Source: Candidatus Magasanikiibacteriota bacterium (GTDB lineage: Bacteria; Patescibacteriota; Patescibacteriia; Magasanikbacterales; GWA2-37-8). Taken from it: a stretch of DNA of 64,000 bases. Made by a program: the position numbers and the translations under genes. Location: positions 16,272 through 80,271 of the forward strand of contig JACPGS010000019.1 in NCBI GenBank assembly GCA_016189025.1, written 5' to 3'. Below the pieces are notes generated by a model. The model was not told where the DNA came from. It did not search any database and saw nothing but the letters and a program-made list of their open reading frames with translations. Positions 4,120 through 60,460 of the stretch are shown here, in pieces; the first letter of the stretch is position 1, and each line of letters begins with the position of its first letter.

Positions 4120-6411
4120 ATGATGGAAAAAGCCTACGACCCTAAAAAATACGAGGCGGACATTTACCGGCGCTGGGAGGCGAGCGGGTTTTTCGCGCCC
4201 GAGGCGCGTCCGCCTTGGGCGGATAATCCAGGGCCAGACACTCGTGAGCCGTACACTATTATCATGCCGCCGCCGAACGCCAATGCCCCTTCGCATGTGG
4301 GACATGCGCTGGGTTATACTATTCAGGATATTTTAATCCGCTGGCAGCGGATGCGCGGCCGGCGCACCCTGTGGCTGCCGGGCACCGACCACGCCGGGTT
4401 TGAAACCCAGGTGGTATTTGAAAAAAAGCTGGAGAAAGAAGGGCTTAGCCGTTTTAAAATGACGCGGGAAGAATTTTACCAGGCTTGCTGGGATTACGTG
4501 CAGACCAACAAACATATTTCCGAAGAGGCGATCAGGCGCCTCGGCGCTTCCTGCGACTGGAGCCGCAATATCTTTACCCTGGATCCGGAAATTATTAAGG
4601 TAGTGTACCAGACCTTCAAGCAGATGTATGATGACGGGCTGATTTATCGCGGCAACCGCATCAGCCACTGGTGCCCCAAACATCAGACCACTCTGTCCGA
4701 TTTGGAAACTAAATACGAAGAGCGCGCCGAGCCTTTTTATTATTTTAAATACGGCCCGTTTGTCATCGGCACCAGCCGCCCGGAAACCAAGTTTGGCGAT
4801 AAATACGTGGTAATGCACCCGGACGATCCGCGCTATGCTAAGTATCACGAGGGACAGCAGATAAATTTGGAATGGATCAACGGGCCGATTACGGCAACCA
4901 TCATTAAGGACCAGGCGGTGGACCGGGAATTTGGCACCGGGGTGATGACCATTACCCCGGCCCACGATGCGGTGGACTTTGCGATTGCGGAACGCCGCGG
5001 GCTTGATATTGAGCCGGTGATTGATAAGCGCGGCAAGCTGTTGCCGATCGCCGGCGAGTTCGCCGGCCGGAAGATTTTAGAGGCCCGATCGAAGATTGTG
5101 GAGAAGCTGCAGGCTAAAGGACTGGTGGATCATATTGACAAAAAATACCAACATAATGTTCAAATGTGTTATAAATGCAGCACCCTAATTGAGCCGCAGA
5201 TTGTGCCGCAGTGGTATGTAGCCATGACTAAACCATTGCCGGGCGGCCGGCCTAGCCTGCGCGATCTGGCTTTACAGGCGCTAGATAAAAAAGAAGTAGA
5301 GATTGTTACCGAACGGTTTGCCAAAATTTTCCGCCACTGGATGGAGAATATCCGCGACTGGCCGATCAGCCGGCAGATTTGGTGGGGGATTCCGATTCCC
5401 GTGAAATATTGCGGTGATTGCGGAGAGATAATTATTGATGTCATCGGTTCAGTGAAAAAGTGTCCGCAGTGTTCGCGCGAACAGCTGACCCCCGATCCCG
5501 ATACCTTTGACACCTGGTTTTCCTCGGGCCAGTGGCCGTATGCCACCTTGCTTGCTAACGATGCCAAGCAGGGCACGCAGACGTTGGCGCAGTATTACCC
5601 CACGCAGGTGATGGAGACCGCCTGGGATATTCTGTTTTTTTGGGTGGCGCGGATGATAATGTTCTCTTATTACCGCACCGGCAAGCCGCCGTTCCAAAAA
5701 GTATTTTTGCATGGTTTAGTGCGCGACAAAGACCGCCAAAAAATGAGCAAAAGCAAGGGCAATGTGATTGACCCTTTGGGAGTGATTGATTTATACGGCG
5801 CCGATGCCCTGCGTTTTGCCCTGATTTTTTCCACCGCCGCGGGCAACGACATTCCGCTCGCCGAAGATAAAATTAAAGGCATGAAGCATTTTGCCAATAA
5901 AGTGTGGAACATTGCGCGGTATATTACTGGCATTGGCGATGGTCATGTCATTCCCGCCCCCGTGTCATTCCCGCGTAAGCGGGAATCCACGGGGGTAAAC
6001 TCCAGCGGGAATCCAGTGCCGGCGAGCGACTGGATCCCCGCGTTCGGCGGGGATGACAAATGGACAGACGCCGACAAACTAATTCTCTCCCAACTCAACC
6101 AAACCATTACAGACGTCACAGACAACCTAGAAAATTTCCGCCTGCACGAAGCGGCGCAGACGCTTTACGATTTTATCTGGCATGAGTTTGCCGATAAATA
6201 TCTGGAAGCCAGCAAAGAACAGCTGAAAAACGAAGCGCTCAAAAACTCCACCCTTAATAATTTATACTTTGTCCTTGCTACCTCGCTCAAACTCCTCCAC
6301 CCGTTTATGCCTTTTGTTACCGAAGCGATTTGGGGTGAGATGTATGGGAAAGAAAGGTTACTTATAGTTGAGAAATGGTCTTCTTCAACGGACGAGTCCG
6401 AAGTGGTATAA
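4120..6411 (+). CDS. valS: Valyl-tRNA synthetase. It is a short form (763 aa) without the C-terminal coiled-coil.
   Basis: 'PPPNANAPSHVGHALGYTIQDILIRWQRMRGRRTLWLPGTDHAGFETQ' matches the ValRS HIGH region. 'KMSKSKGNVIDP' is the exact ValRS KMSKS motif. The anticodon-binding region 'KVWNIARYI…LILSQLNQTI' is present. Confidence 0.85.
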   Translation: MMEKAYDPKKYEADIYRRWEASGFFAPEARPPWADNPGPDTREPYTIIMPPPNANAPSHVGHALGYTIQDILIRWQRMRGRRTLWLPGTDHAGFETQVVFEKKLEKEGLSRFKMTREEFYQACWDYVQTNKHISEEAIRRLGASCDWSRNIFTLDPEIIKVVYQTFKQMYDDGLIYRGNRISHWCPKHQTTLSDLETKYEERAEPFYYFKYGPFVIGTSRPETKFGDKYVVMHPDDPRYAKYHEGQQINLEWINGPITATIIKDQAVDREFGTGVMTITPAHDAVDFAIAERRGLDIEPVIDKRGKLLPIAGEFAGRKILEARSKIVEKLQAKGLVDHIDKKYQHNVQMCYKCSTLIEPQIVPQWYVAMTKPLPGGRPSLRDLALQALDKKEVEIVTERFAKIFRHWMENIRDWPISRQIWWGIPIPVKYCGDCGEIIIDVIGSVKKCPQCSREQLTPDPDTFDTWFSSGQWPYATLLANDAKQGTQTLAQYYPTQVMETAWDILFFWVARMIMFSYYRTGKPPFQKVFLHGLVRDKDRQKMSKSKGNVIDPLGVIDLYGADALRFALIFSTAAGNDIPLAEDKIKGMKHFANKVWNIARYITGIGDGHVIPAPVSFPRKRESTGVNSSGNPVPASDWIPAFGGDDKWTDADKLILSQLNQTITDVTDNLENFRLHEAAQTLYDFIWHEFADKYLEASKEQLKNEALKNSTLNNLYFVLATSLKLLHPFMPFVTEAIWGEMYGKERLLIVEKWSSSTDESEVV
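5947..6061. repeat. MITE/RPE-like palindromic element inserted in-frame within valS. The terminal inverted repeats are GTCATTCCCGC…GCGGGGATGAC. There are two internal hairpins: attcccgcg-taa-cgcgggaat and atccccgc-gttcg-gcggggat.
   Basis: A second copy with the same core (gtcattcccgc…gcgggaatccagt…gagcgactggatcccc…ggggatgacaaat) sits intergenically at 29725..29796. The valS copy carries a 43-bp internal duplication. It encodes an extra ~30 aa (…PAPVSFPRKRESTGVNSSGNPVPASDWIPAFGGDDKW…) in the loop between KMSKS and the anticodon-binding helix. Confidence 0.65.
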
Positions 6412-9210: not shown

Positions 9211-9299
9211 ATCAGATGTCTGATGTCCAAACTTAGCCCCGGCCCGGCCATTGACCGGGAGCGAAAAGTGCTCTAAACTACCGAAGAAAGGAGTTGGCC

Positions 9300-9584
9300 A
9301 TGGAGAACGAAAGAACGCGTGCACTGCTGGAGTGGGTGCGCGCCAAGCTGGTGGAATGGGGCGTACCTCACGACGAGGTGAAGGCAACTTTCGAGCTGCC
9401 ACTCCACCTGGTGCTCGCTTTGATCGGAGCAGCCAGGGCGGAGCTCGGCGTAGAACCCTTCTTCGGCCCCTCGCTCCATCGCGGGCGCTCGCCGGTCTAC
9501 CGGCTCGGTGGCCTGGGCAGGGAGCTGCTCCGGGTGGTGGTGGCCAACCAGGAAGCCGCTCCGCTGCCCGCGCCGCCGTCGTAG
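9300..9584 (+). CDS. Small hypothetical protein (~94 aa) encoded in a ~500 bp GC-rich micro-island
   Basis: Strong RBS AAAGGAG 8 nt upstream of the ATG at 9300. It is followed by the terminator at 9681-9716. In this GC-rich stretch, ORFs appear in all frames, so caution is needed. Confidence 0.35.
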   Translation: MENERTRALLEWVRAKLVEWGVPHDEVKATFELPLHLVLALIGAARAELGVEPFFGPSLHRGRSPVYRLGGLGRELLRVVVANQEAAPLPAPPS

Positions 9585-9680
9585 TACACTTGGGTCGCAG
9601 GTCTAACACCCGCCATCTCACCGCTCTTCGTGCGAAGCGTGGGACGCCAACAGAAAGGAGGTATCGCACGCAGCACAAAA

Positions 9681-9716
9681 CCCGCCTCGCCACTACGCTT
9701 GAGGCGGTTTTTGTTT
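9681..9716 (+). terminator. Rho-independent terminator
   Basis: cccgcctcgcc-actacgct-tgaggcggg followed by a TTTTTGTTT tract. Confidence 0.6.
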
Positions 9717-9772
9717 GGGGGAGAATGGACAAACCCGGCGGGGAGTGGTAGAGTAGGAGCAACTTTTGAATT

Positions 9773-10516
9773 ATGTTCCAAGCTAAAACAGAAAAAATTC
9801 AGCAATTAGCTCAAAAGTATCCCCATCGTATCAAAGAGCTTGAGGAAATTTTTAGCCGCAAGACTAACGTATATATTGACTATGCCAACGTTAAGCCGTG
9901 GGCAAGCAAGTTGGGGTGGCATGTAGAATTAAAGCGTTTAAAGCAGCTTTTAAATTCTTTTGGTACCATTAACGCCGTAAAAATTTATTGCGGCACGCTG
10001 GTGGGGAACAAAGAGTCGGTTGAGTTTAGTGAAGAATTGAAGCGGCTGGGTTATATCGTTACGACTAAGCCAGTTAAAATAATGAAAAAATCAATTGATG
10101 TTTCAAGCATTACCTCTGCTTCGCCAGATATTCTCAAAGATTTTATTCGTCGGTCATTGCTCCAGAAGCTAAAAGTTGAAACCGTCGAATATTTGAACAG
10201 TCGTTTGAAAGAACTCAATGATCAGGGTATATTCTATATCGAAGATTTAAAATGTAATTTTGATGTGGAGATTGGCAGAGACATGTTAATTGATTATGAT
10301 AAAAACGGCATTGAAAATTTTGTGTTGTGGAGCGGCGATAGCGACTTCGCCAGTTCGTTGGAGCAGCTTTTAGCCGACGGCAAAAGAGTATTCATTTTTG
10401 CCACCGCACGCAAAGTTGCAAACGAGCTCAATGAGCTTCGTAAGAAAGGATTGGCAATTTTTGATATTCAAAAAGTACGCAATTTTATTTGTTGGAATAA
10501 AGAAAAGACTGTATAA
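9773..10516 (+). CDS. NYN-domain (LabA/DUF88-like) predicted RNase
   Basis: 'NVYIDYANV' at the N-terminus and 'VLWSGDSDF' are the paired acidic motifs of NYN/LabA nucleases. AT-rich gene. Confidence 0.65.
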   Translation: MFQAKTEKIQQLAQKYPHRIKELEEIFSRKTNVYIDYANVKPWASKLGWHVELKRLKQLLNSFGTINAVKIYCGTLVGNKESVEFSEELKRLGYIVTTKPVKIMKKSIDVSSITSASPDILKDFIRRSLLQKLKVETVEYLNSRLKELNDQGIFYIEDLKCNFDVEIGRDMLIDYDKNGIENFVLWSGDSDFASSLEQLLADGKRVFIFATARKVANELNELRKKGLAIFDIQKVRNFICWNKEKTV

Positions 10517-10930
10517 AAGCAAAAAGGACTCCTGGCGGAGCCCTTAAGCTTTAGAATTCATGATCATCACTGATCAATAACACTATACCACATCACTAGC
10601 TAATTTGTCAAGCGGAGTGGTGTGGATATAATATCCGACCTATTTTATACCTTTAAGCCATCTCAAAACCCACTATTGTCATCCTTTCACCCCGCCTAGC
10701 GAGGTTCAGGACAGGCTTTGAGACTATTAGGCCCCCCGACTTAGTCGGGGTCGCTCAGGGTAAACTCCGCGGAAAGCTTTGCCCTAAGCCATGTGGTAAG
10801 CTTGCCAAATCAATTGCCGAAGGGATCTCTGTCTTAAGGGAAATTTTGGACAGAGATTCCTCGCTTGACACTCGGAATGACAGTTTTGAGATGACCTCCA
10901 TTTGAGATTTATAAATTGGCGGAGTGAGAT

Positions 10931-11473
10931 ATGAGGACTCCAAAAGAAATAGGTCAATGGCTGTTCAAAATAATTGTTGAAGCATTTATAATCGGCATCA
11001 TTGTAAGTTTGATTAGTAGTGCTTTATGGGCATATTATGATAGTTTTTCTTCATCGGCTGATTTTGTTAAGAATTTAAAGGGTGAAATCTCGTATAATAT
11101 ACAGATACTTGGCAGTCTTCAAACTTTAGCTAATTCAGCTGGTGAAAAACGCATTCCCTTTTATCGAAACCAAATAAAGACAAGCGTCAGGGATTCATTC
11201 TGGTATGTGCACAAAAATCAATTTTCTTCTGAAGAGATTACAAAGATTGAAAATTATTATACGAATATTGAATACTTACGAGAGTCAGTCGAACGTATTT
11301 GGATTGCAGGTAGTTCTGGGCAACAGGAACTTGCAAAAAATTTGTTAGATGGTGCCACAAAGCTACAGATTAGTTTAATTGCTGAAGGAGATGAGTTGCA
11401 AAGTATCTTGAAAAAAAATTCCTTAATAAGACCACGCTTGTGCGTTAGCAAATACTGTGTGCTCAGGCCATAA
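10931..11473 (+). CDS. Small membrane-anchored protein (N-terminal TM helix), hypothetical
   Basis: Hydrophobic helix 'LFKIIVEAFIIGIIVSLISSALWAYY'. AT-rich. It ends 15 nt before the SIR2-like gene, so the two are probably co-transcribed. Confidence 0.5.
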   Translation: MRTPKEIGQWLFKIIVEAFIIGIIVSLISSALWAYYDSFSSSADFVKNLKGEISYNIQILGSLQTLANSAGEKRIPFYRNQIKTSVRDSFWYVHKNQFSSEEITKIENYYTNIEYLRESVERIWIAGSSGQQELAKNLLDGATKLQISLIAEGDELQSILKKNSLIRPRLCVSKYCVLRP

Positions 11474-11488
11474 ACGAGCGGATTAAAT

Positions 11489-12511
11489 ATGAATTGGATT
11501 AATAATACAAGCGAGATAGGTTTGCTAACCGGAGCAGGGTTCACAGCAAATTTTGGAGGTTATCTACAACGGGAAATGTGGAATAAAATGTTTAATCATG
11601 AATTTACCCAAAAAAATGAGGTTATTAAAAAGAAAATGTTGAAAGCTGCAAGGGGGGCATGTCTGTCAAAAAGAGACTATGATTATGAGTCGGTTTATAC
11701 GGAACTATTTGAAACGCAGCCAGCAATTATACAAATTTTAATGGATACTTACAAGGTTCTAGACCAGAGTATTAGTATTAGTCACTATAACGAAACATCC
11801 TATAATGAACAAAAATTTAGAGAATTTATTGCTGAAGTTAGCAGGGCAAGCAATCAAACACCAATGGTATGGTTTACGTTGAACCAGGATTTATTTTGTG
11901 AAAATTTTGCTCAAGTTACCCCGCTCTGGATTAGGTATACGCGCCAGGACGATAATAACAACGATAAAGTTGTAGAACTGCCAAACGAGTTAAAACTTCA
12001 AGAAATACAAACACGTCATCCGAATGGCCAATTAGTGTATGTAAAACTTCATGGTTCGTATGGATGGTTGTCAAGTCGTGGTGGCAAGGCCGTAGCAGTT
12101 GGCGCAGATAAGAAAAAATTTATAGATCAAGAGCCTCTTTTAAAATCCTACTTTGATGAAATATTCTCCCCTTGGCTTAGACAGAAAAGAAAGCTATTAG
12201 TGATTGGATACTCTTTCCGCGATCAACATGTCAATGACTATTTGATTAAAGCTATACAAGATGAAAATTTGAGGCTGTTTATTATTAGTTTAGCCGACAT
12301 GAAGGACTTAGTTGATAGTTTTGCAAAGCAAGGCGATTCTAAAAAGGTAGAAATGGCTATAGATGGTTATTGGCAGAAAAAGTTGGTTGATATATTTACT
12401 GATTATGCACAAACCTCTGTTGAGGTAGATGAATTAAGGCAAGCCTTAACTAGAGATTGGATGAACAAAGATTTTTTTGGAACTCAAAGACTACCAAATC
12501 AAAACGCTTGA
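11489..12511 (+). CDS. SIR2-like (SIR2_2/DHS-like NAD-binding fold) protein of the kind found in anti-phage systems
   Basis: N-terminal 'GAGFTANFGG' resembles SIR2_2 'GAGFS'. 'FTLNQDLF' resembles 'TTNYD'. 'KLHGSYGW' carries the catalytic His. 'LLVIGYSFRDQHV' resembles the 'GYSxxD' motif. Confidence 0.65.
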   Translation: MNWINNTSEIGLLTGAGFTANFGGYLQREMWNKMFNHEFTQKNEVIKKKMLKAARGACLSKRDYDYESVYTELFETQPAIIQILMDTYKVLDQSISISHYNETSYNEQKFREFIAEVSRASNQTPMVWFTLNQDLFCENFAQVTPLWIRYTRQDDNNNDKVVELPNELKLQEIQTRHPNGQLVYVKLHGSYGWLSSRGGKAVAVGADKKKFIDQEPLLKSYFDEIFSPWLRQKRKLLVIGYSFRDQHVNDYLIKAIQDENLRLFIISLADMKDLVDSFAKQGDSKKVEMAIDGYWQKKLVDIFTDYAQTSVEVDELRQALTRDWMNKDFFGTQRLPNQNA

Positions 12512-12636
12512 ATTGTATATAGTTATGTCTTTTTTTAGTCATCCAGATATACACAGCATGAACTTGACAACCGGACGGCTGTATAGTATGCTTATATTAG
12601 CTAACCACCCCCACCCTGCCCCCGAAAGGGGGCCCG

Positions 12637-13362
12637 GTGGGGTTTTTTCTTATGTCCAAACTAGTTTTTGACATTGAAACGGTCGGCGAGGATTGGGAAT
12701 CCCTGGATCAAACTACGCAGGAAGCCCTGACGCGCTGGATTAAACGCGAGGCCGAGAGCGAAGCTGAATACCAGGTGTCGCTCGCCGCGGTAAAAGACGG
12801 GTTAGGGTTTTCGCCGCTCACCGGGCAGATTGTGGCGATCGGCGTATTGGATTGCGAAAAGAATAAAGGCGCCGTGTATTTTCAGGCGCCGGGAACTTCC
12901 CTTACGGAGTCAGAGGAAGACGGCATAAAATTCAAACCCGCTACCGAACGAGAAATGCTGGAACAATTCTGGCAGGGCGCCCGGCAGTACCAGGAATTTA
13001 TCAGCTTCAACGGCCGGGCATTTGACGCGCCGTTTTTAATGGTGCGCTCCGCTATCCACGGAATTCGCCCCAGTAAAGACCTAATGTCCAACCGCTATCT
13101 GGGGAGCCAGCGCTACGACTGCAAGCATATTGACCTCATGGATCAGTTGTCGTTTTACGGCGCTGCGCGCCGCAAGGGCAGCCTGCATTTGTGGAGTCGC
13201 GCTTTTAGCATCAAGAGCCCCAAAGCCGACGGCATCAGCGGCGACGACGTTAAACGATTATTCAGCGAGAAAAAATTTTTGGACATCGCCCGCTACAACG
13301 TCGGCGATTTAGCGGCGACGCGGCAGCTGTACGAACAATGGGAAAAGTATTTGCGGTTTTAG
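12637..13362 (+). CDS. RNase H-like 3'-5' exonuclease (PolB-exonuclease-like / YprB family). The true start is probably the Met at 12652.
   Basis: 'LVFDIETVG' is a DEDD-type Exo I motif. '…FNGRAFDAPFL…' and a later 'YNVGDL' give Exo II/III-like acidic residues. Confidence 0.55.
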   Translation: MGFFLMSKLVFDIETVGEDWESLDQTTQEALTRWIKREAESEAEYQVSLAAVKDGLGFSPLTGQIVAIGVLDCEKNKGAVYFQAPGTSLTESEEDGIKFKPATEREMLEQFWQGARQYQEFISFNGRAFDAPFLMVRSAIHGIRPSKDLMSNRYLGSQRYDCKHIDLMDQLSFYGAARRKGSLHLWSRAFSIKSPKADGISGDDVKRLFSEKKFLDIARYNVGDLAATRQLYEQWEKYLRF

Positions 13363-16347: not shown

Positions 16348-19300
16348 ATGGACCGCCACTTGCGGCCTAAAAAGGAGGCTTCCATGAAGTCGAAACGGAA
16401 TAACGCGGCGCTCATTTTCACCCTGTATTTGTTCGGTGCGGTTGGTTGCGCGAGTTCCGGGCCTACCCCGGGCACGGACGGCGATGCCAACGACGCCCGA
16501 GGGGATGCGGTGCTACCCGCCTGTGCCAAGGATCAGGACTGTCCGCCCGGCCAGCTCTGCGAGCTCGCCACACAGGTCTGCCGGCCTGGCTGCTCAACGG
16601 CCCACGGCTGCGGTCAAGGACGCCTCTGCGAGCTCGATGCCGGTGCCTGTGTGGAGTGCTTCGCCGACAGCGACTGTCTCCTAAAGCAGGAGCCCCGTTG
16701 TAACGCGAGCAAGCACCGCTGCGTCCCTTGCCTACCAGCGGGAGACAACTGCGGTCCGGGGGAGTATTGCCTTTTTGATGGCACGAACTACCGCTGCGAG
16801 GCCGGCTGCAAGGGAGACAGCGACTGCGGCGGAAACACGCCGCGCTGCGACCTGACCGCCCACCAGTGCGTCGCCTGCCTCGCCCACGCCGACTGCGCCG
16901 CCGGCACGTGCTGTACCGCCTCCCAGGAATGTATGGCCACGGACTTTCAGTCCGATGCGCGACACTGCGGCGCCTGCGGGGTGGAGTGTCTTGGCGGCTG
17001 GCTCTGCTGTGGGGGAACCTGCAGTAATCCCGCCAACGATCTCACGAACTGCGGCGGTTGTGGTAACGTCTGCACCGCCGCCCACGGTGCCCCGAAGTGC
17101 GCGGCGCGCGTTTGCGGTATTGAAGTCTGCGACAGCGGATGGGCCGACTGTAGTGGCGGAATCAGCGATGGGTGCGAAACCAACACCCAGATCAACTCCA
17201 ACCACTGCGGCGGCTGCAACCAGACCTGCCCTTTTCCTCCCAACGGGACACCGCGCTGCGCCCAGGGCCAATGTGAGATCATCTGCCAAGGTGGCTTCGC
17301 AGACTGCGACCAAGACCCGACCAGTGGCTGCGAGGTGAACACGATGACCAGCCAGGCCAACTGCGACGGCTGCGGTAACGTCTGCACCGCCGCCCACGCG
17401 ACAGCTCGCTGCTCCCAAGCCACCTGCCAGGTAGCAATCTGTGACCCCGGATATGCCGACTGCAACAGCAATCCCGCCGATGGCTGCGAATCCATGACTG
17501 AATCGGACACGGCGAACTGTGGTGGCTGTAATCGGGTATGTTCCCTACCCAACGCCATCGCTCAATGTTCCAGTGGGGCCTGCCTGCCTACCAGCTGTCT
17601 GTCGGGCTACGACAATTGCGACAATTTCGCCGGCAACGGTTGCGAAACCAGCCTCACGAGCGACCCGGCTCACTGTGGCGCCTGCGCCGCTGTCTGTTCG
17701 GATCTAAATGGCACGCCATCTTGTCGCAGCGGGACGTGCCGAATCACCTGTGCGCTGCCGTTTGACAACTGCGATAGTGACCTCGCGAATGGCTGCGAGG
17801 CCAATCTAGATGTTGACCCGAACAGCTGCGGCGGCTGTGGAGTGGTCTGTTCCTCACTGAATGTAGCAGTCCGGACGTGCAGCAATGGCATGTGCGCCGG
17901 AATCTGCGTTTCGGGATTCCAGGACTGCAATGGTAACAAGCAAGTGGACGGGTGTGAAATCAACCTCGTTACCGATGCTGCGAACTGCGGCGGCTGTGGG
18001 AACCGGTGCGACCTGCCGAACGCTACGGCCACCTGTACGCAGAGCGCCTGCGCCATTGATTCCTGCCAGTCTGGCTTTGGCAACTGTGACGGAGCGCCGA
18101 CCAACGGTTGCGAGGCAAACCTCCAGACCGATAGGGGTAACTGTGGAGTCTGCAATGTGATCTGTGCAATGCCGAATGGCACGCCGCGCTGTGTCCTCGG
18201 CAACTGCGCAATCGGCCCCTGCAACGCCGGGTACGCGGACTGCGACCGTAACATCAGCAACGGCTGCGAGTCCAATTCGCAAACCGATTCCAATAACTGC
18301 GGCGCCTGCGGCACGGTCTGTAGTGGCAGCGGTGCAACCTGCGTTGCTGGCCTGTGCACTTGCTCAATCTCAATGGGGGGGACGCTCTGCGGTGGTACCT
18401 GTGTCAACACCGCTACTGATCCGAACCACTGCGGCGGGTGCGGTCGGTCGTGCATGACTAGGCCTTGCATAAACTCGCTGTGCGATGGCATTAATTGTCC
18501 CGCTGGCTGGGCTGACTGCGACCAAAACAATCTCTGCGAAACAAATATCACCACAGTACAGAACTGTGGCCGGTGCGGCGTGGTCTGTTTGGTGCCGAAC
18601 GGTACCCCGGCTTGCGTCGGAGGGATCTGCCAGATCGCCTCCTGCACCGCGCCGTTCGCTGACTGCGTCAACGGCATCGCCGACGGCTGCGAAACGAATG
18701 TGAGCGGCAGCGATCTTCAGAACTGCGGAGCCTGCCAACAGACCTGCGTCCTAGCCCACGCGACGGCCCGTTGCTCCCAGGGCGCTTGCCAAGTAGTAGC
18801 CTGTGAGTCTAGCTATGGCGACTGCAATAGCGACCCCACCGACGGCTGTGAAACTAATCTCCTTACGGACTCTGCCCACTGCTTTAATTGCGGGAACAAG
18901 TGCCCACCAGATGCGCCAGTCTGCGTAAACGGAAATTGCCGTTGCAACAGCGACACGGATTGTGCCTTGGCGACCGGTCGGCCGAGGTGTAGTACACCGC
19001 TCCCGCCATACTTATGTGTTCAATGCCTGGACGACGCGATTGATTGCCCGCTCTATACTGCCTGTCATAAGGACGGGTATAGGTGCGAGGCTGTCTGCGG
19101 CGACGGAGCGCACACTCTCTGCAATGGCGGCTGTTGCCAGCAGGGCGTCTGCACCCAGGGGGTTGCCAATGACGCGTGTGGGAACAGTGGCGGGAGCTGT
19201 TCTGCCTGTAGTCCTTTTACGCCGATCTGCCTACCCACTGGAACGTGCAGCGGCTGCACAACATCAGCCGACTGCAAATTCGGCGTTCCTTGTATTAACG

Positions 19301-19569
19301 GCCTTTGCACCTGCCTGTTGGATGGTAATCGTTGCGTTACCAATTCAGATTGCTGCAGTGGGAATTGTGACGGTACCTTCTGTGGTGTTCCGAATAATTG
19401 CTATGAACCCGGGTTTGGCGGCCATTGCGGAGGAGGTGGAGATCCACCCTGCTGTTTTGGTGGAGAATGTTTTTTGAACGCCTGCTCCTTTGTTGATAAC
19501 GGTGAACGGTGTAGCGCCGATCGACAGTGTTCTAGCAAGAAATGTGAGGCCGGCGTTTGTGTTAGATGA
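16348..19569 (+). CDS. Cysteine-rich tandem-repeat lipoprotein with about 20 copies of a ~40-aa 'NCGxCGxxC…C…G…C' unit, ending in knottin-like 'C…CCS..C.G..C' units. The start is probably the Met at 16384.
   Basis: Signal peptide plus lipobox 'LFGAVGC'. Repeats such as 'TNCGGCGNVCTAAHGAPKCAARVCGIEVCDSGWADCSGGISDGCETN'. They resemble Myxococcus-type cysteine-rich repeats. Confidence 0.7.
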   Translation: MDRHLRPKKEASMKSKRNNAALIFTLYLFGAVGCASSGPTPGTDGDANDARGDAVLPACAKDQDCPPGQLCELATQVCRPGCSTAHGCGQGRLCELDAGACVECFADSDCLLKQEPRCNASKHRCVPCLPAGDNCGPGEYCLFDGTNYRCEAGCKGDSDCGGNTPRCDLTAHQCVACLAHADCAAGTCCTASQECMATDFQSDARHCGACGVECLGGWLCCGGTCSNPANDLTNCGGCGNVCTAAHGAPKCAARVCGIEVCDSGWADCSGGISDGCETNTQINSNHCGGCNQTCPFPPNGTPRCAQGQCEIICQGGFADCDQDPTSGCEVNTMTSQANCDGCGNVCTAAHATARCSQATCQVAICDPGYADCNSNPADGCESMTESDTANCGGCNRVCSLPNAIAQCSSGACLPTSCLSGYDNCDNFAGNGCETSLTSDPAHCGACAAVCSDLNGTPSCRSGTCRITCALPFDNCDSDLANGCEANLDVDPNSCGGCGVVCSSLNVAVRTCSNGMCAGICVSGFQDCNGNKQVDGCEINLVTDAANCGGCGNRCDLPNATATCTQSACAIDSCQSGFGNCDGAPTNGCEANLQTDRGNCGVCNVICAMPNGTPRCVLGNCAIGPCNAGYADCDRNISNGCESNSQTDSNNCGACGTVCSGSGATCVAGLCTCSISMGGTLCGGTCVNTATDPNHCGGCGRSCMTRPCINSLCDGINCPAGWADCDQNNLCETNITTVQNCGRCGVVCLVPNGTPACVGGICQIASCTAPFADCVNGIADGCETNVSGSDLQNCGACQQTCVLAHATARCSQGACQVVACESSYGDCNSDPTDGCETNLLTDSAHCFNCGNKCPPDAPVCVNGNCRCNSDTDCALATGRPRCSTPLPPYLCVQCLDDAIDCPLYTACHKDGYRCEAVCGDGAHTLCNGGCCQQGVCTQGVANDACGNSGGSCSACSPFTPICLPTGTCSGCTTSADCKFGVPCINGLCTCLLDGNRCVTNSDCCSGNCDGTFCGVPNNCYEPGFGGHCGGGGDPPCCFGGECFLNACSFVDNGERCSADRQCSSKKCEAGVCVR

Positions 19570-29880: not shown

Positions 29881-30010
29881 AAAGAATTACTCTTAAAGTA
29901 GAAAAGATGTTTCGGTCGGGCTGGTTGGTTCGTTTTCCTTGCCCTTGCTTTTGTTATTGCTAAAGAGGTATACTAGGGTGGAGAGCGCACAAAATTTAAG
30001 TTTTTCAGGT

Positions 30011-33000
30011 ATGACGACAGCAGCCAGGCGAATCATTGTTTGGGCAGTCATTGTCCAGTTAGTTTTTTTGCCGCTGGCGCCGCTCTGGGCGCAAGAAGCG
30101 GCAGTTGCCCCGTCGGGCAGCGTTCCCCAGGCCAGCGCCCCTGATTCTTTTGGCGCCGCCTCTCTGTTACCATCAGTTAATACCGGCACGTTAAATGTTG
30201 CCGGTTTTAATTTACCGGCTGATTCCACCGCCGCTGCCCCCAGTACTACTATTAATATCGTTAATCCTGGCAATCTCGGCAGCGATAATCAAGTCGGCAA
30301 TGCGGCGCCGGAGATGGCAACTTCCACCCCCGCAGGAGCGGCCACTCCCTTGCCTTCCTATTCGTCTTTAATGCGCCAGGTCAAAGACATCAAAGCAGGC
30401 AAGATTAAGAATGATGGATCAGTCGCTGCCGCATTTAAAGCCTTTATTGAAGCGGAAGAGAAAAAATTGGATCAGCTGGGGGTGGATTCAGATAAGCAAG
30501 AGCGATATTTTACCTTGCTTAAACAGCAATGGCGCGCGGTGGGCGGCAGTCCCGCTTTAACGACTTGGGAAAAGGCTTCGCAAAAATTACGCGGAATTTT
30601 TGGCCTGACCGAAACCACCGAAGAAGCGGCCACGCCGCCGGAGGACAACATCTTAATTCCCCGGCAGCCCGGCTCGTTTAAATTTAATGATGAGAAAATA
30701 ATCGTTGAATCTCTAAATAGCGCGGCCAATAAACCGAAGCCGGCGCCCTTAAGCTGGTGGCGCAATATTTTTTGGGTTGACTCGGCAGTAGCGGCCGATG
30801 ACCCGAATTTACCCCAACTGGCGGACGTTCAACCAGACAATGGCGAGGTGGTGATTAACTCGGAAATAATGGATTTAGCCGGTTCCCTCAATAATAATCC
30901 GGTGAAGATTTTGAACTATGTAAGAAATAATGTTAGTTACGTACCGTATTATGGCGCCAAAAAAGGGAGCCTCGGTTGTTTAAGAGAAAAAGTTTGCAAT
31001 GATGTGGACGCCTCGTCTTTGCTGATTGCTCTCTTGCGTGCCGGCGGTATCCCCGCTCGCTATAAAAAAAGTCTGGCGCTGTTTCCGGTGGGCCAGCTAA
31101 ACAATTTTCTGGGGGTAGATGAAACCAAAACTGCTTTTGCGGCGCTGGCTTTGAATAAAGTGCCGGTGTACACCATCAACAGCGTTAATGCCGGCAAAAC
31201 CCTGGCGGATGCCGATTTTTCCCTGGAAACCCAATTAGCCGTGGAATGGGTATTTGCGGAGGCTTTTTATGATTATGACCAGCGCGGCGGCGATATTGAT
31301 AATCAGCTTAGTTTTACCGATGCCACCACTACGGCGGCAGTGCAGCTGGCACTCGGCGGATCTCCCAAAAAACAATGGCTGGCGCTGGACGCAGTGGTTA
31401 AGCCGTCTACCCGCCTAAAAAAAGAAATCGTCGCGGATACGGCGCAGTTTGATACCCAGAGTTTTTGGAACAACTATCTTTCCTATCAAGGCAGTTTATC
31501 GCCGCTTAATAAATATATTGATGATCTTGCCAGCGCTACCGGCAAAAATATTACTGATCCGGCTTATCAGTCGGTGAAAATCCCCGCCAGCGCGGATTTG
31601 CCCTATCTGCCCCCCACTTTGCCGTATTATACCCGCACCGGTTCAGTGGGCGGTTCGCTAATCCAGCCCGAGGCCTGGTCGGTGTTGCCTGCTAGTTTAC
31701 GTCAGCAGGTAACCATCAGTTTGCGCAAAGCGGCGGATAATAGTGTAGTGTTGCAGCATACTTTTTTTGGCAATGAAATCAATAATGTGGAGTTGAATTT
31801 GAATTATGAAGGCGCCACCGACCAAGACCGGCAAATTATTGACAGCTATGGCGGTATTGCCTATACGCCGGCGGCTTTGGCCAGCCTTAAGCCGTATTTA
31901 GAAAGCGAGGGAGCGCGCTATGATTCCACCGCCGTTCTCCAGGTTGGCGATACCCTGATTCTGGAGTTTAATTATTTAGTGCAAGGACAAAGCGTTTATT
32001 TAGACGAAAAGTTTTCCCTGGCCGGCAATCAAGAGGGTATTTATATCGTATTATCCAAAGTTCAGGATGACCCGGCGCTAGATACCAATTCTCATATTCT
32101 GTTGCGCGGCAACACCGGGCTGGCGCGCAAGTATTTACTGCAAGATGAGCAGAGCGGTAGGTTGTTGGGAAAGTCGCTGGATTATGAGTTTCATTTCTCT
32201 TTTGTGCGCGCGGTGGTAACGCAAAACCGCGTGCTTGCCAAGGTCAACGGTCTGCCCACCACCTTTGACTTCCAGGGGCTGACCTTGGATTCCAGCACCT
32301 ATATTACCGACTATTCCAATCGCGGCGATTACCGCACTCACCAAAAAGATTTCCGGCTCCTGTGGGGGCTGAACAGCTCGTATTACGAGGGGCAGCTACT
32401 GGAAGATATTACCGGTTTGCAGAGCATTGCTACGGTCCAGGGATTGCAGTACGCCTACGCCCACCCGGCCGATTACACTGTTTATACCATCGCCAGCACC
32501 ACGCCCAATTACCAGTCGCTGGTAAGTTCGCTGGCGCTGTCTGACGCCACGAAAAACAACATAATTTGGGAAATCCAGCAGGGCAATACCGTGATTACGC
32601 CCGATAAAATAATCACTGACGGCATTTGGCGAGGCGTGCTTTATATTGTTCGGCGCCCGGATTTTACCGCCCAGTTCGCGATTGGCGAGCAGGTGAGCAA
32701 TGGGGGGTGGACGACGGATGGATACGAGATAATTTTGGTGTTAATTGATGGCAAGGAGTACGCGCGCTTTAAGAATGAGGGAGTAAACGATAATTTTGTA
32801 TTTGCTGATGGCATCTTTGGTGCTGATGATAAAAAATGTCGCATGCCTAAGACACAGTTTTTGGGTATTATGAATAATCAGAATAATGAAGGCTGGCAAC
32901 CGGCATATGGTCTACCTTGCTTGACTGAAACCAAACAGTTTGGCTCGGTAAATCATACCTATATTTTAACCACCGAGGCGGCTAAATTCTACAGTCCAAG

Positions 33001-34639
33001 TAAGTATGATTATTGGGTAACAGAAGCGAATGCTAAGAATATTTTGAGCAATGATAAGGATAAGGACAATACCGAAAACTTGAGTGATATTAAGTTAGAT
33101 AGTACTTTTAAATTTAACCCTATCGCTGGGACATATTCTTGGTTCGGGCACTATGGCTGGCGAGGCAAAATGATCACCGCCTATTATCAACCTACCAGCC
33201 AGGGTGGAGCGGGGCGCATGGTTTATGGCGATATTTTAGATAAACTTACGCAAGCGCACTTTAATCCCCAGAGCTATCTTTGTTCTTCACGAGACACCTA
33301 TTGCGGAAAGGAGAACTATGTGTTGAATACGATAGGTTTTCCCACTGGGAACAAAAGAGTAGCGGCACCATTCATTATAAATTGGGGGATTGACACCCAA
33401 GGTTATTATCAGGATTTTATCGGCGGACAGGTATATGTAAAAACCAGCGGTAGAAATAAAATTTACTATGTTCCCGGCAAAATTTCAGAGTATTACAATA
33501 ACCAGCAGAACTGCCGCCTAGTTAATGGTCAAACAGTCTGCGGCAGTGGAGGGGTGTTTGGGTTTCCCACCAGTGACCCTTATCTAAAAAACGACAAAAT
33601 TACCTTAAAACAAACTTTTGAGAGCGAAGCAATTGTGTGGAATACGCAAACTGGTGCCACCGGCCCTGAATATGCCGCCTATTATTATTGTGATGAAGTT
33701 GATACCAATAGTAATTTTATCATCGGCAAAGCACTTCTGCATGGTTTATGGGACGGCGGAAGTTCTTTAGCCAAAGGCGCGATTATTTTTGGCGCCACCG
33801 CCTTTGCCGCCGGGGCCACAATTGATTTTGTATTTGGCACTCATGGCGGCGCCACCATTGCCGCTTGGAGTGCCATTGGTATTGGAGCCACAATAGGTGT
33901 GGCAGAGGTTTATCGGCAGGGAGTTAGTAATGTTTTTGCCAATGTCGACCAACGAATTCAATATGAATTTGAGCATTCCAACTGTACAGCCCGTAAAGCA
34001 TATTTGTTTTCCCGGTATGTGCCAGAAGCGGCAGTGATAGTTTTGGGGATTAAGGATTTAGCTGTTAAAACACCGTCTGAATTACGCGGTATCACTCTTA
34101 CTAATAATATTTTTACTGCTTCCCAAAGCGAGGTCTTGCCGAGGATGAAGAGTGCGTTTATTCAGAATTTGGGCTTTTTTGACAGAGTATTCAGAAGAGG
34201 TGAGGCGGATAGAACAAAAATTATTGAGGATATTGATCTAAAAGTGCAGTCTGAATTGGCGACACAGACTAAGATAAAGGGCACATCATTGACACAAGAA
34301 GAAGAGAGTTCGGTAATAACCAAAGAGTATACAAAAGACTTATCACAAAATAAGTTAGTTGTTAAGAAAATTACAGAAGAAGTGGAACCGACACTAGATC
34401 GAATCACCCGAGGGGAAAAGTATCCCTGGCAAAATGATGGCAGTATATATAAAAATATTTCCCCAGCTGATAGCGGGAGGCCGCCAATCATGAATGATCC
34501 TAATTATTATACTGAGTATGTACACCCCACATATGGTTTGCAATTGGGTGACCCAGGGCTACAAAGGGTGATTATTGGTAAGGGTGGAGAAGTTTATTTT
34601 ACCGCCGATCATTATCACAATTTTATCCGACTAAAATAG
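30011..34639 (+). CDS. Giant secreted protein (about 1540 aa from the Met at 30011; the ORF is open from 29939). It has a transglutaminase-like cysteine-protease core, a C-terminal glycine-zipper/TM-like segment and an AT-rich C-terminal ~250-aa module. Polymorphic-toxin-like architecture.
   Basis: Signal peptide 'RRIIVWAVIVQLVFLPLAPLWAQEA'. 'GSLGCLREKVCNDVDASSLLIALLRAGGIPARY' matches the transglutaminase-like core (the catalytic Cys followed by the ALLRAxGIPAR motif). 'GAIIFGATAFAAGATIDFVFGTHGGATIAAWSAIGIGATIGVA' is a glycine-zipper. GC content drops sharply from about 33.0 kb to the end. Confidence 0.6.
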   Translation: MTTAARRIIVWAVIVQLVFLPLAPLWAQEAAVAPSGSVPQASAPDSFGAASLLPSVNTGTLNVAGFNLPADSTAAAPSTTINIVNPGNLGSDNQVGNAAPEMATSTPAGAATPLPSYSSLMRQVKDIKAGKIKNDGSVAAAFKAFIEAEEKKLDQLGVDSDKQERYFTLLKQQWRAVGGSPALTTWEKASQKLRGIFGLTETTEEAATPPEDNILIPRQPGSFKFNDEKIIVESLNSAANKPKPAPLSWWRNIFWVDSAVAADDPNLPQLADVQPDNGEVVINSEIMDLAGSLNNNPVKILNYVRNNVSYVPYYGAKKGSLGCLREKVCNDVDASSLLIALLRAGGIPARYKKSLALFPVGQLNNFLGVDETKTAFAALALNKVPVYTINSVNAGKTLADADFSLETQLAVEWVFAEAFYDYDQRGGDIDNQLSFTDATTTAAVQLALGGSPKKQWLALDAVVKPSTRLKKEIVADTAQFDTQSFWNNYLSYQGSLSPLNKYIDDLASATGKNITDPAYQSVKIPASADLPYLPPTLPYYTRTGSVGGSLIQPEAWSVLPASLRQQVTISLRKAADNSVVLQHTFFGNEINNVELNLNYEGATDQDRQIIDSYGGIAYTPAALASLKPYLESEGARYDSTAVLQVGDTLILEFNYLVQGQSVYLDEKFSLAGNQEGIYIVLSKVQDDPALDTNSHILLRGNTGLARKYLLQDEQSGRLLGKSLDYEFHFSFVRAVVTQNRVLAKVNGLPTTFDFQGLTLDSSTYITDYSNRGDYRTHQKDFRLLWGLNSSYYEGQLLEDITGLQSIATVQGLQYAYAHPADYTVYTIASTTPNYQSLVSSLALSDATKNNIIWEIQQGNTVITPDKIITDGIWRGVLYIVRRPDFTAQFAIGEQVSNGGWTTDGYEIILVLIDGKEYARFKNEGVNDNFVFADGIFGADDKKCRMPKTQFLGIMNNQNNEGWQPAYGLPCLTETKQFGSVNHTYILTTEAAKFYSPSKYDYWVTEANAKNILSNDKDKDNTENLSDIKLDSTFKFNPIAGTYSWFGHYGWRGKMITAYYQPTSQGGAGRMVYGDILDKLTQAHFNPQSYLCSSRDTYCGKENYVLNTIGFPTGNKRVAAPFIINWGIDTQGYYQDFIGGQVYVKTSGRNKIYYVPGKISEYYNNQQNCRLVNGQTVCGSGGVFGFPTSDPYLKNDKITLKQTFESEAIVWNTQTGATGPEYAAYYYCDEVDTNSNFIIGKALLHGLWDGGSSLAKGAIIFGATAFAAGATIDFVFGTHGGATIAAWSAIGIGATIGVAEVYRQGVSNVFANVDQRIQYEFEHSNCTARKAYLFSRYVPEAAVIVLGIKDLAVKTPSELRGITLTNNIFTASQSEVLPRMKSAFIQNLGFFDRVFRRGEADRTKIIEDIDLKVQSELATQTKIKGTSLTQEEESSVITKEYTKDLSQNKLVVKKITEEVEPTLDRITRGEKYPWQNDGSIYKNISPADSGRPPIMNDPNYYTEYVHPTYGLQLGDPGLQRVIIGKGGEVYFTADHYHNFIRLK

Positions 34640-34662
34640 CGGCGGCAGATTGCTTAAAGTTA

Positions 34663-35313
34663 TTGTTTTTATCTATCACTATTATGGAAAATTTTGCAGA
34701 TTTGAAGAAATTTGAAAATCGTGAGTCTCTGAAAAGAGATTTAGAAAATCGGGGTATTATTTTTAGTGATGGTTTAACTGGCCAAGAGATTACGCATGCG
34801 GAGAAAAAATTTAAGTTTAATTTTCCGCCCGACTTAAAAATGTTTCTTCAACATGCATTGCCAATCGCTAGAAAAGAGCGAGATGAATCGTTTTTTCCCG
34901 ATTGGAGGCATTTGAATAGTGATAGTTTGAATTTTTATATGGGTCTTCCATTAGAGGGAATATTGTTTGATGTTGAAAACAATAACTTCTGGTTGCCTGA
35001 ACTGGAACAGAAACCGCAAGATAGCGAGAAAGCAAAAAAGATTATGATTGAAGCTGTTAATAAAGCCCCAAAATTGATTCCTATTTATGCACACCGGTAT
35101 CTTCCCGCTGAGCCGCTTGAAGAAAATAACCCTATTTTTAGCGTGCATCAGACGGACATTATTTATTACGGATCATATTTGTATGATTATTTTCAAGTCG
35201 AATTTAATAAAAGGGTCTATGCAAGTAGTGGCGTAAAGCCGAAAAAAATAAAATTTTGGAGTGCAATTATAGAAAGCAATACCGGCCGGAGTGAATCGAT
35301 GCTGGCTCCATAG
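34663..35313 (+). CDS. SUKH/SMI1-KNR4-like immunity-protein candidate
   Basis: 'GLTGQEITHAEKKFKFNFPPDLKMFLQH' resembles the SUKH N-terminal 'I..aEk.lg..lP.dyk.FL' motif. It lies immediately downstream of the AT-rich C-terminus of the giant protein and shares its composition. Confidence 0.4.
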   Translation: MFLSITIMENFADLKKFENRESLKRDLENRGIIFSDGLTGQEITHAEKKFKFNFPPDLKMFLQHALPIARKERDESFFPDWRHLNSDSLNFYMGLPLEGILFDVENNNFWLPELEQKPQDSEKAKKIMIEAVNKAPKLIPIYAHRYLPAEPLEENNPIFSVHQTDIIYYGSYLYDYFQVEFNKRVYASSGVKPKKIKFWSAIIESNTGRSESMLAP

Positions 35314-56379: not shown

Positions 56380-57405
56380 ATGGATTTAACCCAAGCCAAT
56401 TACAATGCCTGGGCAGTAAAGCCGGAAGATTTCCCCAAAAACGGGCCGCTCTCCGAGCAGCTGAAGTTTTTGTTGCGATATGGCATTTTGGCGCCGTCCG
56501 CGCATAATACCCAACCATGGTATTTTGATATCAAGGATAATGTCATAGAGATATACATCAATAAAAAGCGAATACTCGGCGCCTCAGACCCTACCGGTAG
56601 GCAGACGTATGAGAGTATGGGCGCTTGTATAGAAAATTTAGTTATCGCGGCGAATTATTTTAATTTTCACGTACAAGTTAACTATTCTTTTGGCAAAGAA
56701 GACGATGAAAGGAAATTAGTTGCGATAGTGGCTGTTTCACTTTCTACAAGTTCTATCCGGCCACCCCTTGCTTCTTTGCTACCTTTTGTGCCAAAACGTC
56801 ATAGCGCAAAATTAGCATATCATAGGGATCGTTTGAGCGAAGATCAAAAGAAAGGTTTGATGAGCGCAAATGAGTGGCCAGATTTGGAGTTAAAAATTAT
56901 TGATGATTCGTACATAATTGGAAAGATAGCTTATTTGGTTGGTGAGGGGACGCGCCGTGCAATGCAATGGCCGGAGTTCTTAGAAGAACTACGAAACTGG
57001 TTAAAGCCAAATTGGACTAAAGAGTATGAAGGAATGCCCGGTTTTACAGTCGGTATGCCAGGCTTTGTTTCTTGGCTATTTCCAAAATTACTTGGAAAGA
57101 TTGACGTGAGTAGAATGCAAGAGAAAATGATGCAAAAATTAGTTAGAAAAACACCCGCTATTGGAATTATTTCTGTCTACAGTCAAGGGCCAATGGCCTG
57201 GATGAATGCTGGCAGGCTATTCGAGCGTATTTCACTCCTTGTTACTAAAGACGGTTTTGGGACATCTGCAATGGGGGCGCCAGTTGAGTTTAATGATATA
57301 GCCAGAAAATTAAAAATTATACTGCAAATAAGTGGCTGTCCGACTTTGGTTTTTAGAATCGGACGGCCTAAAGTTAATGTTGGGCATAGTCCACGTCATC
57401 TATAA
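56380..57405 (+). CDS. Nitroreductase-family protein (two-lobed, Acg-like; 341 aa)
   Basis: 'LAPSAHNTQPWYF' is the nitroreductase FMN-binding signature. The length suggests tandem nitroreductase-like halves. AT-rich. Confidence 0.6.
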   Translation: MDLTQANYNAWAVKPEDFPKNGPLSEQLKFLLRYGILAPSAHNTQPWYFDIKDNVIEIYINKKRILGASDPTGRQTYESMGACIENLVIAANYFNFHVQVNYSFGKEDDERKLVAIVAVSLSTSSIRPPLASLLPFVPKRHSAKLAYHRDRLSEDQKKGLMSANEWPDLELKIIDDSYIIGKIAYLVGEGTRRAMQWPEFLEELRNWLKPNWTKEYEGMPGFTVGMPGFVSWLFPKLLGKIDVSRMQEKMMQKLVRKTPAIGIISVYSQGPMAWMNAGRLFERISLLVTKDGFGTSAMGAPVEFNDIARKLKIILQISGCPTLVFRIGRPKVNVGHSPRHL

Positions 57406-57459
57406 GACATCACACTCCAAAATCGGACTCACCACTAAATCCGAGCAAGGAGTAATTAA

Positions 57460-57726
57460 ATTTGTTGGTGTTTAATTTGGATCAAGCAGCATCTCTCGAT
57501 TGAATCGTTCTGGGGACAGAGCGCGAATGCTGTCAAGATTCAAATCTGTGTTGCTCTCGCCGCGTACCTGCTGCTGACCGTTCTGAAGAAGCAACAGCGC
57601 AGCATCGATCGCAATTCCTACGAAATTCTACAAATTTTAACTGTGTCGCCATTCGATAAAACCCCCATAGCCAAGCTCGTTTCCGAGTTTCAGCTACCAA
57701 TTCCATGGCCATCTGGCCAGAAATAG
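57460..57726 (+). mobile_element. C-terminal remnant (~88 codons) of an IS4/IS5-superfamily (DDE_Tnp_1-like) transposase gene. Pseudogene fragment.
   Basis: Translation '…SANAVKIQICVALAAYLLLTVLKKQQRSIDRNSYEILQILTVSPFDKTPIAKL…' resembles the conserved C-terminus of IS4/IS5-type transposases (NAVKTQIWIA…LLL…K…SLYEILQ…). There is no start and no upstream part. The frame opens right after a TAA. Confidence 0.5.
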
Positions 57727-57782
57727 GCTCAGTTATTGGAGTTTTAACGAGACACTAGTGACATCAATTTAGAATCAAACTT

Positions 57783-58817: not shown

Positions 58818-58820
58818 ATT

Positions 58821-60455: not shown

Positions 60456-60460
60456 GGATT

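Follow-up and report, generated by a model that had tools for sequence, protein, structure and literature searches.

A stand-alone SIR2_2 sirtuin, predicted to act as a defence NADase, in a putative composite accessory insert of a Candidatus Magasanikbacteria genome

We analyzed a 64-kb stretch of a Candidatus Magasanikbacteria genome (Patescibacteria; candidate phyla radiation, CPR; contig JACPGS010000019.1), hereafter the window, which contains three plus-strand genes in an AT-rich block at 9773-12511. The genes encode a NYN/LabA-like nuclease of 247 amino acids (aa) at 9773-10516, a 180-aa protein with an N-terminal transmembrane (TM) helix at 10931-11473 (hereafter TM-180), and a stand-alone SIR2_2 sirtuin of the SIRim type (340 aa, predicted NADase effector) at 11489-12511. 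These are the same positions at which an earlier note on this DNA had placed the three open reading frames (ORFs). Among anti-phage effectors, NADases of the SIR2 type make up a major class, and to our knowledge every characterised member of this class has a sensor domain or a partner (HerA, ThsB, pAgo, STAND, or KomAB). The protein described here is a defence-type SIR2 without any known partner or sensor domain. The region most likely consists of independently acquired accessory modules, located between a 178-aa ORF and an exonuclease gene, and not of a single three-gene system.

Identity, fold and family of the SIR2 protein

The 340-aa protein matched Pfam SIR2_2 (PF13289) with an E value of 3.1e-11 (44.0 bits; cut-off, 24.5), which confirms the family that the earlier note had assigned from the motifs GAGFT, TLNQD, KLHGS, and VIGYSFRD. 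All four motifs were present and fell on invariant columns of a 32-sequence alignment of the family. T14, G15, A16, F18, N132, Q133, D134, and H188 (the catalytic His of KLHGS) were invariant in 32 of the 32 members, including the window protein, and the motif set invariant in this alignment was TGAGF, TLNQD, KLHGS, and GYxFxD. The catalytic residues of the window protein are intact.

The AlphaFold model computed from this alignment (predicted local distance difference test (pLDDT) 83.6; predicted template-modelling score (pTM) 0.85) has the Rossmann fold of SIR2 without the zinc-ribbon module of canonical sirtuins, and the whole protein contains two Cys residues. The structural-neighbour figures for the model were 13.3 for KomC, 13.1 for ThsA, 12.8 for Avs5, approximately 11-12 for the canonical sirtuins, and 10.9 for FAM118B. 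Foldseek and a profile search of the PDB sequences gave the same order of neighbours. These results place the protein among the defence-type (SIRim) sirtuins, closest to the SIR2-HerA branch and yet distant from it (15-18% identity, TM-score of approximately 0.5).

No TIR, HerA, pAgo, SLOG, or STAND partner was found, in agreement with the earlier description of the protein as stand-alone. The protein also differs from the named SIR2 systems SIR2-HerA, Thoeris, DSR1/DSR2, and SPARSA, as had been claimed for the TM and SIR2 gene pair. The SIR2 proteins of SIR2-HerA (Nezha / GAO_19; PDB 8w9l, 8yhx, 8j4u, and 8sub) have approximately 380-430 aa compared with 340 aa here, and the SIR2 gene of the window lies between the TM-180 gene and a PolB-exo-like exonuclease gene, with no gene for a HerA-type ATPase adjacent to it. 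HerA was also absent from the 25 neighbour families listed for 150 flanks of SIR2 family members. Because its 340 aa are essentially all SIR2 fold, the protein has none of the following: the SLOG/Macro domain of ThsA in Thoeris, the large sensor region that DSR1/DSR2 (approximately 1000 aa) carry in addition to SIR2, the STAND or large sensor domain of Avs5, and the APAZ region of short-pAgo SPARSA and Aga_SIR2. Neither a ThsB/TIR gene nor a pAgo gene was found in the neighbourhood. In regards to architecture, the protein resembles FAM118B and FAM118A, the vertebrate "SIRal" SIR2_2 sirtuins, which consist of a single SIR2_2 domain of approximately 330-350 aa and have no fused sensor. The activity of FAM118B depends on filament formation (PMC12700824), and this protein is therefore a precedent for the control of a domain-only SIRim sirtuin.

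The family to which the window protein belongs gave more than 1000 matches, nearly all of 313-354 aa and at most 38% identical to it. The matches were distributed over many CPR lineages, Desulfobacterota, Nitrospirota, Gammaproteobacteria, Planctomycetota, and archaea.

The TM-180-SIR2 operon and the surroundings of the SIR2 family

The gap between the TM-180 and SIR2 genes is 15 nucleotides (nt), as the earlier note had it. Because this spacer is too short for a promoter or a terminator, the two genes should be co-transcribed, and the junction together with a single terminator indicates one operon. The hairpin terminator that had been reported at 12.6 kb was recovered as a strong intrinsic terminator at 12609-12650 on the plus strand (-30.3 kcal/mol, z -4.0), where the hairpin is followed by the U-run UUUUUUCUU and stops 1-3 nt short of the ATG of the exonuclease gene. 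At the other end, the distance from the NYN gene to the TM-180 gene is approximately 415 nt and includes a hairpin and promoter-like sites. A sigma-70-like promoter candidate, TTGTCA-16-TATAAT (10605-10632, plus strand, 11 of 12 consensus matches), faces the TM-180 and SIR2 genes and was present in the window lineage only, among the four NYN lineages compared. It is followed at 10633-10930 (plus strand) by approximately 300 nt of structured, partly GC-rich sequence upstream of the TM-180 gene. The folding energy of the 414-nt NYN-TM-180 spacer was -136.6 kcal/mol (z -4.3); the spacer had no match in Rfam, and 10633-10930 was not conserved downstream of the NYN gene at other loci. This is the region in which the earlier note had described an element at 10.8 kb resembling a miniature inverted-repeat transposable element. 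No second copy was found in the 64 kb and no inverted repeats flank 10.6-10.9 kb, so that claim falls, and 10633-10930 is read here as the long leader of the TM-180-SIR2 operon.

Hydropathy confirmed the single N-terminal hydrophobic segment of TM-180 (approximately residues 11-33), which precedes a helical domain and a C-terminal Cys pair. No family match was obtained in Pfam, NCBIfam, PADLOC, or PHROGs, and a word-index protein search returned the protein itself only. An exhaustive HMMER search of 1.84 billion representatives gave five remote homologs of 129-205 aa (E values from 3e-22 to 1e-6), which indicates that the family is real but very rare. In the alignment of the six sequences, all full-length members have a basic N-terminus, one hydrophobic helix, and a helical region, and four of the six have the Cys pair at the C-terminal end. 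The positively charged N-terminus and the conserved Cys pair suggest that TM-180 is anchored in the membrane in an N-in/C-out orientation and that its helical domain is extracytoplasmic; a single-sequence AF2 model (pLDDT 43) was unusable for a fold search. At locus L173 (665-1750), a family member is followed at a distance of 12 nt by the gene for a 172-aa receiver-domain (Response_reg) protein, which hints that members of this rare family stand first in short operons whose second gene varies. Another homolog has an HTH_17 gene before it and convergent genes after it, and the contig of a further one is too short to show its neighbours. A function of TM-180 as a lineage-specific sensor or modulator of SIR2 is a tentative proposal that we hold with more doubt than belief; the protein may also be an unrelated co-transcribed passenger, e.g. 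a surface-exclusion protein.

To examine the context of the SIR2 family, we surveyed 86 loci, comprising 80 from species-representative genomes, five from metagenome look-ups, and the window, and TM-180 relatives were sought at these loci by phmmer --max at E ≤10. The survey bears on an alternative in which TM-180 and SIR2 would constitute an obligate two-component defence system, where the membrane protein would sense an envelope event (adsorption, DNA injection, or membrane damage) and free or activate the SIR2 NADase. We consider this alternative unlikely. A relative of TM-180 was found at 0 of the 86 SIR2 loci, and a SIR2 neighbour at 0 of the three TM-180 relatives with informative flanks. 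Since neither family's loci hold the other, the TM and SIR2 unit put forward in the earlier note is not conserved at the homolog level, an outcome that the note itself had named as refuting it. Small ORFs with an N-terminal TM segment lay directly upstream of SIR2 in 7 of 37 cases, compared with 84 of 738 in the background, which is not a significant enrichment (p 0.13), and the upstream TM proteins are mutually unrelated. Furthermore, the predicted N-in/C-out topology would leave approximately 10 cytoplasmic residues of TM-180 for contact with SIR2.

The operon structure described above speaks for an obligate pair, as does the occurrence of TM-180 relatives at the head of other short operons, such as that with the receiver-domain protein. 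A further argument comes from the nearest SIR2 lineage, in which the gene for a TM-DUF2726 protein and the SIR2 gene form a discrete 1.64-kb block. The blocks of L006 (4411-6045) and L007 (4432-6067) share 90.5% nt identity and extend from approximately 44 nt before the TM-DUF2726 gene to approximately 90 nt past the SIR2 stop codon, and the genes that flank them differ. The junction between the two genes is 15 nt, as in the window. At L004, a 122-aa multi-TM ORF is located 10 nt upstream of SIR2. TM-DUF2726 is not homologous to TM-180, and the DUF2726 protein could be an effector itself or belong with the adjacent PycC gene in L006. The shared block is a portable two-gene module found in different defence islands, and it argues for a looser form of the TM and SIR2 idea. 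We give only a small chance to a reading in which the solitary SIR2 NADases of this branch would be wired to interchangeable small membrane proteins (TM-180 in the window, TM-DUF2726 in Nomurabacteria, and a multi-TM protein beside CBASS), whose membrane or extracytoplasmic parts would sense envelope events in phage attack. If true, such a "membrane sensor + SIR2" arrangement would be a modular type of defence outside Thoeris, DSR, SIR2-HerA, SPARSA, and Avs5.

The closest relatives of the window protein lie inside dense defence islands with Pycsar, CBASS, TIR-like/caspase, restriction-modification (R-M), and DUF4238 genes and large serine recombinases. The gene order is LexA-S24, DUF3892, PycC with PycTM, a second PycC, TM-DUF2726, and SIR2 in L006 (Nomurabacteria); S24, a TIR-like gene, a caspase, a 217-aa ORF, TM-DUF2726, SIR2, and a serine recombinase in L007 (uncultured bacterium); and S24, CD-NTase, Cap15, the multi-TM ORF, and SIR2 in L004. 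This residence agrees with the 12-fold enrichment of the SIRim clade beside known defence systems (10.1101/2024.09.18.613514). In the family as a whole, the genes within 4 kb of SIR2 (n=86 loci) included large serine recombinases at 15, N6/N4 DNA methyltransferases at 9, LexA/S24 repressors at 5, and DUF4238 at 4. Family members frequently reside in defence islands or recombinase elements. Among the 150 immediate neighbours, the commonest family was the serine recombinase (6) and the rest were doubletons and singletons, in which defence or mobile genes (DpnII, RmuC, cpYpsA-SLOG, the YhcG nuclease, and HTH_17) were mixed with housekeeping genes. No recurrent partner of SIR2 was found among these neighbours or at the 86 loci. 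The family is solitary.

A different arrangement was observed on three provirus-like viral contigs (L163-L165, 3692-5984), where distant SIR2 relatives, 23-24% identical, begin 12 nt after a conserved pair of ORFs of approximately 120 and 307 aa. These may represent a different SIR2 system with a fixed partner.

The same surroundings can be read in another way, namely that the SIR2 protein has no immune role and is instead an enzyme of regulation or metabolism borne by mobile DNA, such as a protein deacylase, an ADP-ribosyltransferase acting on proteins or small molecules, or a toxin of the addiction type. Housekeeping genes, for example those for glutamine synthetase, aminoacyl-tRNA synthetases, and glycosyltransferases, lie beside many family members, and the solitary domain without an obvious sensor would suit such an enzyme. 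Four observations nevertheless make this reading quite improbable: among the structural neighbours, anti-phage NADase sirtuins come ahead of deacylases and SirTM, the zinc-ribbon module is absent with two Cys residues only, the closest relatives are within dense defence islands, and an association with defence holds for the whole SIRim clade (10.1101/2024.09.18.613514).

The NYN gene, its convergent element and the limits of the putative insert

The 247-aa protein matched Pfam NYN (PF01936) with an E value of 2.1e-16 (61.2 bits; cut-off, 24.2), and its earlier identification as a NYN nuclease is thereby upheld. More than 100 CPR proteins of approximately 248 aa shared 65-79% identity with it. 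The identity at third codon positions between lineages was 44-50%, and the amino acid conservation therefore reflects strong selection and not recent transfer; a recently spreading NYN gene was ruled out, as these positions are saturated. The neighbours of the gene were wholly different between loci (L157-L161 and L170 among those examined). In one lineage the gene lies between thioredoxin/DsbD genes and rplT-rpmI-infC, and in another genome it interrupts a type I R-M operon between hsdM and hsdS, beside a Shedu-type gene and an integrase. At every locus examined the gene was AT-richer than its flanks, and none of the 86 SIR2 loci had a NYN neighbour. These results indicate that the NYN gene is an autonomous, strongly constrained solo gene and a unit separate from TM-180-SIR2. 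We found nothing in the literature on a NYN gene of this kind.

A promoter and terminator scan detected a candidate convergent small transcription unit on the minus strand at 10513-10611, which overlaps the stop codon and 3' end of the NYN gene and has a predicted RNA of approximately 60 nt. It is composed of a -35 element TTGACA (10611-10606), a TG-extended -10 element TATAGT (10587-10582), a first hairpin (10576-10561), and a terminator hairpin (10545-10524), all on the minus strand, and the T-run after the terminator hairpin reaches the NYN stop codon. The same layout of promoter, hairpin, and T-run was found in four of four independent NYN lineages, i.e. the window, L157 (4743-4842), L160 (4740-4844), and L170 (approximately 4758-4860). 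The opposite-strand promoters had 10-11 of 12 consensus matches and were located approximately 66-100 nt past the stop codon (97-125 nt in L170). The non-coding element after the stop codon was 88% identical at the nt level between the window and L157, compared with 46% at NYN third codon positions, and 5 of 15 stem pairs were kept by changes on both sides. Rfam gave zero family matches for this element. As judged from these sequence features, the element probably gives rise to an RNA of approximately 60 nt that is convergent with the NYN gene, both ending at one bidirectional terminator, and this RNA may be an antisense small RNA in a toxin-antitoxin-like layout. In type I toxin-antitoxin systems of the par (Fst/RNA II) type, a protein gene and a small convergent RNA gene have a bidirectional terminator hairpin in common. 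The NYN gene and the predicted RNA resemble this layout in all four lineages; unlike in par, the would-be toxin is a 247-aa nuclease instead of a small membrane peptide, and the overlap of the predicted RNA with the mRNA is confined to the stop codon and 3' end. The NYN gene and the convergent small RNA may form a nuclease/antisense-RNA module of their own, so far undescribed and widespread in CPR.

The GC content of 9773-12511 is 37.7% compared with 50.2% for the whole window, which is at approximately the 5th percentile of 2.7-kb windows, and the NYN, TM-180, and SIR2 genes (33-40% GC) are contiguous and in the same orientation. The AT-rich block of the earlier note and its non-uniform composition are therefore real, whereas the flanking DNA has 50-58% GC and not the approximately 60% given there. 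The immediate neighbours were also not arfB and argS: those on the left are the 178-aa ORF and then a 63% GC block that holds a 94-aa ORF, and the right neighbour is the PolB-exo-like exonuclease gene (12652-13362), whose product starts with MSKL. The 94-aa ORF (9300-9584, plus strand) lies in the GC-rich block at 9231-9772 (63-67% GC), which is compositionally opposite to the adjoining 38% GC genes. The ORF was called as a gene on contigs of the same population, gave zero family matches in Pfam and PHROG searches, and is likely terminated by a hairpin with a U-run at 9671-9717 (plus strand, -20.6 kcal/mol, z -2.3).

An 11-bp direct repeat, ATGTCCAAACT, was found at 9223-9233, 13 nt past the stop codon of the 178-aa ORF, and again at 12652-12662, where it constitutes the first 11 nt of the exonuclease gene, on its ATG. 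The repeat is a candidate target-site duplication or att core. The 11-mer occurs only twice in the whole 64 kb; shuffling produced an 11-mer common to both boundary zones in 40 of 20,000 cases (p of approximately 0.002), and such an 11-mer was seen in 0 of 242 equally spaced pairs of control zones. The ATG at 12652 is the true start of the exonuclease gene because its relatives align from residue 1. With the insert removed, this ATG would fall 13 nt past the stop codon of the 178-aa ORF, downstream of a Shine-Dalgarno-like GGGAGA. These results suggest that the inserted segment is 9223-12662 (approximately 3.4 kb), wider than the earlier note had it, and since this segment also holds the GC-rich ORF, its history would be composite.

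The proposal that the NYN, TM, and SIR2 genes are one anti-phage cassette acquired as a unit, which is favoured by their shared low GC content, orientation, and contiguity within the repeat-bounded segment and by the one NYN relative in a type I R-M/Shedu island, is very improbable, given the hairpin and promoter-like sites in the spacer of approximately 415 nt, the NYN relatives that occur alone with their own conserved 3' element in unrelated contexts, the absence of NYN neighbours from the SIR2 loci, and the unlike conservation of the three genes (NYN ≤79%, SIR2 ≤38%, and TM-180 a near-orphan).

A viral origin was tried and rejected: eight weak SIR2 relatives and one NYN relative were located on viral contigs, and searches with PHROG, for viral folds, and for the NYN 3' hairpin on viral contigs were empty. 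The window as a whole contained no tRNA and no Rfam RNA. Its composition is patchy (33-62% GC per kb), and at least three further AT-rich patches occur at approximately 33-36, 44-47, and 56-61 kb. At 29939-35313, a 1566-aa ORF with an AT-rich 3' end (from approximately 33 kb) precedes an ORF of 216 aa that matches SUKH-1/SMI1_KNR4 weakly (E value of 5e-4, under the cut-off). Polymorphic toxins in which the C-terminal toxin domain has been swapped, together with their immunity genes, typically show this layout. In the AT-rich block at 56380-62053 (33-43% GC) lie genes for a nitroreductase-like protein, an O-methyltransferase, and a tandem pair of 7TM-type histidine kinases. Very large ORFs are located at 16348-19569 (1073 aa, 61-65% GC), 35918-41230 (1770 aa), and 47238-56222 (2994 aa).

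A probable composite accessory insert with a predicted solitary SIRim NADase

We favour, with slightly more belief than doubt, the reading that the segment is a composite accessory insert in which an autonomous NYN/small-RNA module lies beside a TM-180-SIR2 operon, the latter providing a solitary SIRim NADase for abortive-infection defence. The first module would comprise the NYN nuclease gene and the conserved convergent small-RNA-like unit, with the terminator hairpin in common. The second would be the TM-180-SIR2 operon, starting probably at 10605-10632 and ending at 12609-12650. Defence sirtuins are NADases that are activated by a change in oligomeric state, often by the formation of filaments (PMC12700824). 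By analogy with every characterised SIRim member, the SIR2 protein would most likely be an NAD+ glycohydrolase, silent in uninfected cells and switched on, when infection occurs, by a change in its oligomeric state. The resulting depletion of NAD+ would abort phage replication. This activity, the anti-phage role, and the trigger are inferred, whereas the gene structure, the domain identity, the intact catalytic residues, the fold, the geometry of co-transcription, the solitary nature of the family, and its frequent residence in defence islands and recombinase elements are direct results of the analysis.

Several points weigh against this reading, in addition to the many family members among housekeeping genes and the solitary domain without an obvious sensor. 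The NCBIfam SIR2_antiphage equivalog (NF042942) scored 38.3 bits against a cut-off of 500, and the PADLOC matches of the SIR2 protein were partial, the best being Aga_SIR2 with 49 bits over residues 106-272. No tested stand-alone SIR2 of this sub-family of approximately 330 aa was found in the literature. The promoter assignments are consensus matches only. In regards to the insertion, no integrase or recombinase was found among the genes of the window, and the search for an empty site was negative: 61 metagenomic loci with relatives of the exonuclease (≤74% identical) lacked the other window genes, and look-ups of identical flanking proteins returned only contigs of the same population or sample series, every one of which carried the insert. 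With no synteny among the relatives and the insert present in every contig of the same population, an empty site could not be recovered, and the insertion and its limits are therefore deduced from composition and one 11-bp repeat.

The value of the candidate is limited because it was assigned from homology and context, and because support for the TM partnership is weak. The immune repertoires of CPR bacteria are thought to be sparse and poorly charted, and a testable defence candidate in this group is useful for that reason. More broadly, the more than 1000 domain-only SIR2 proteins of this family pose the question of how a bare SIR2 domain is silenced and then triggered, and the same question applies to vertebrate FAM118.

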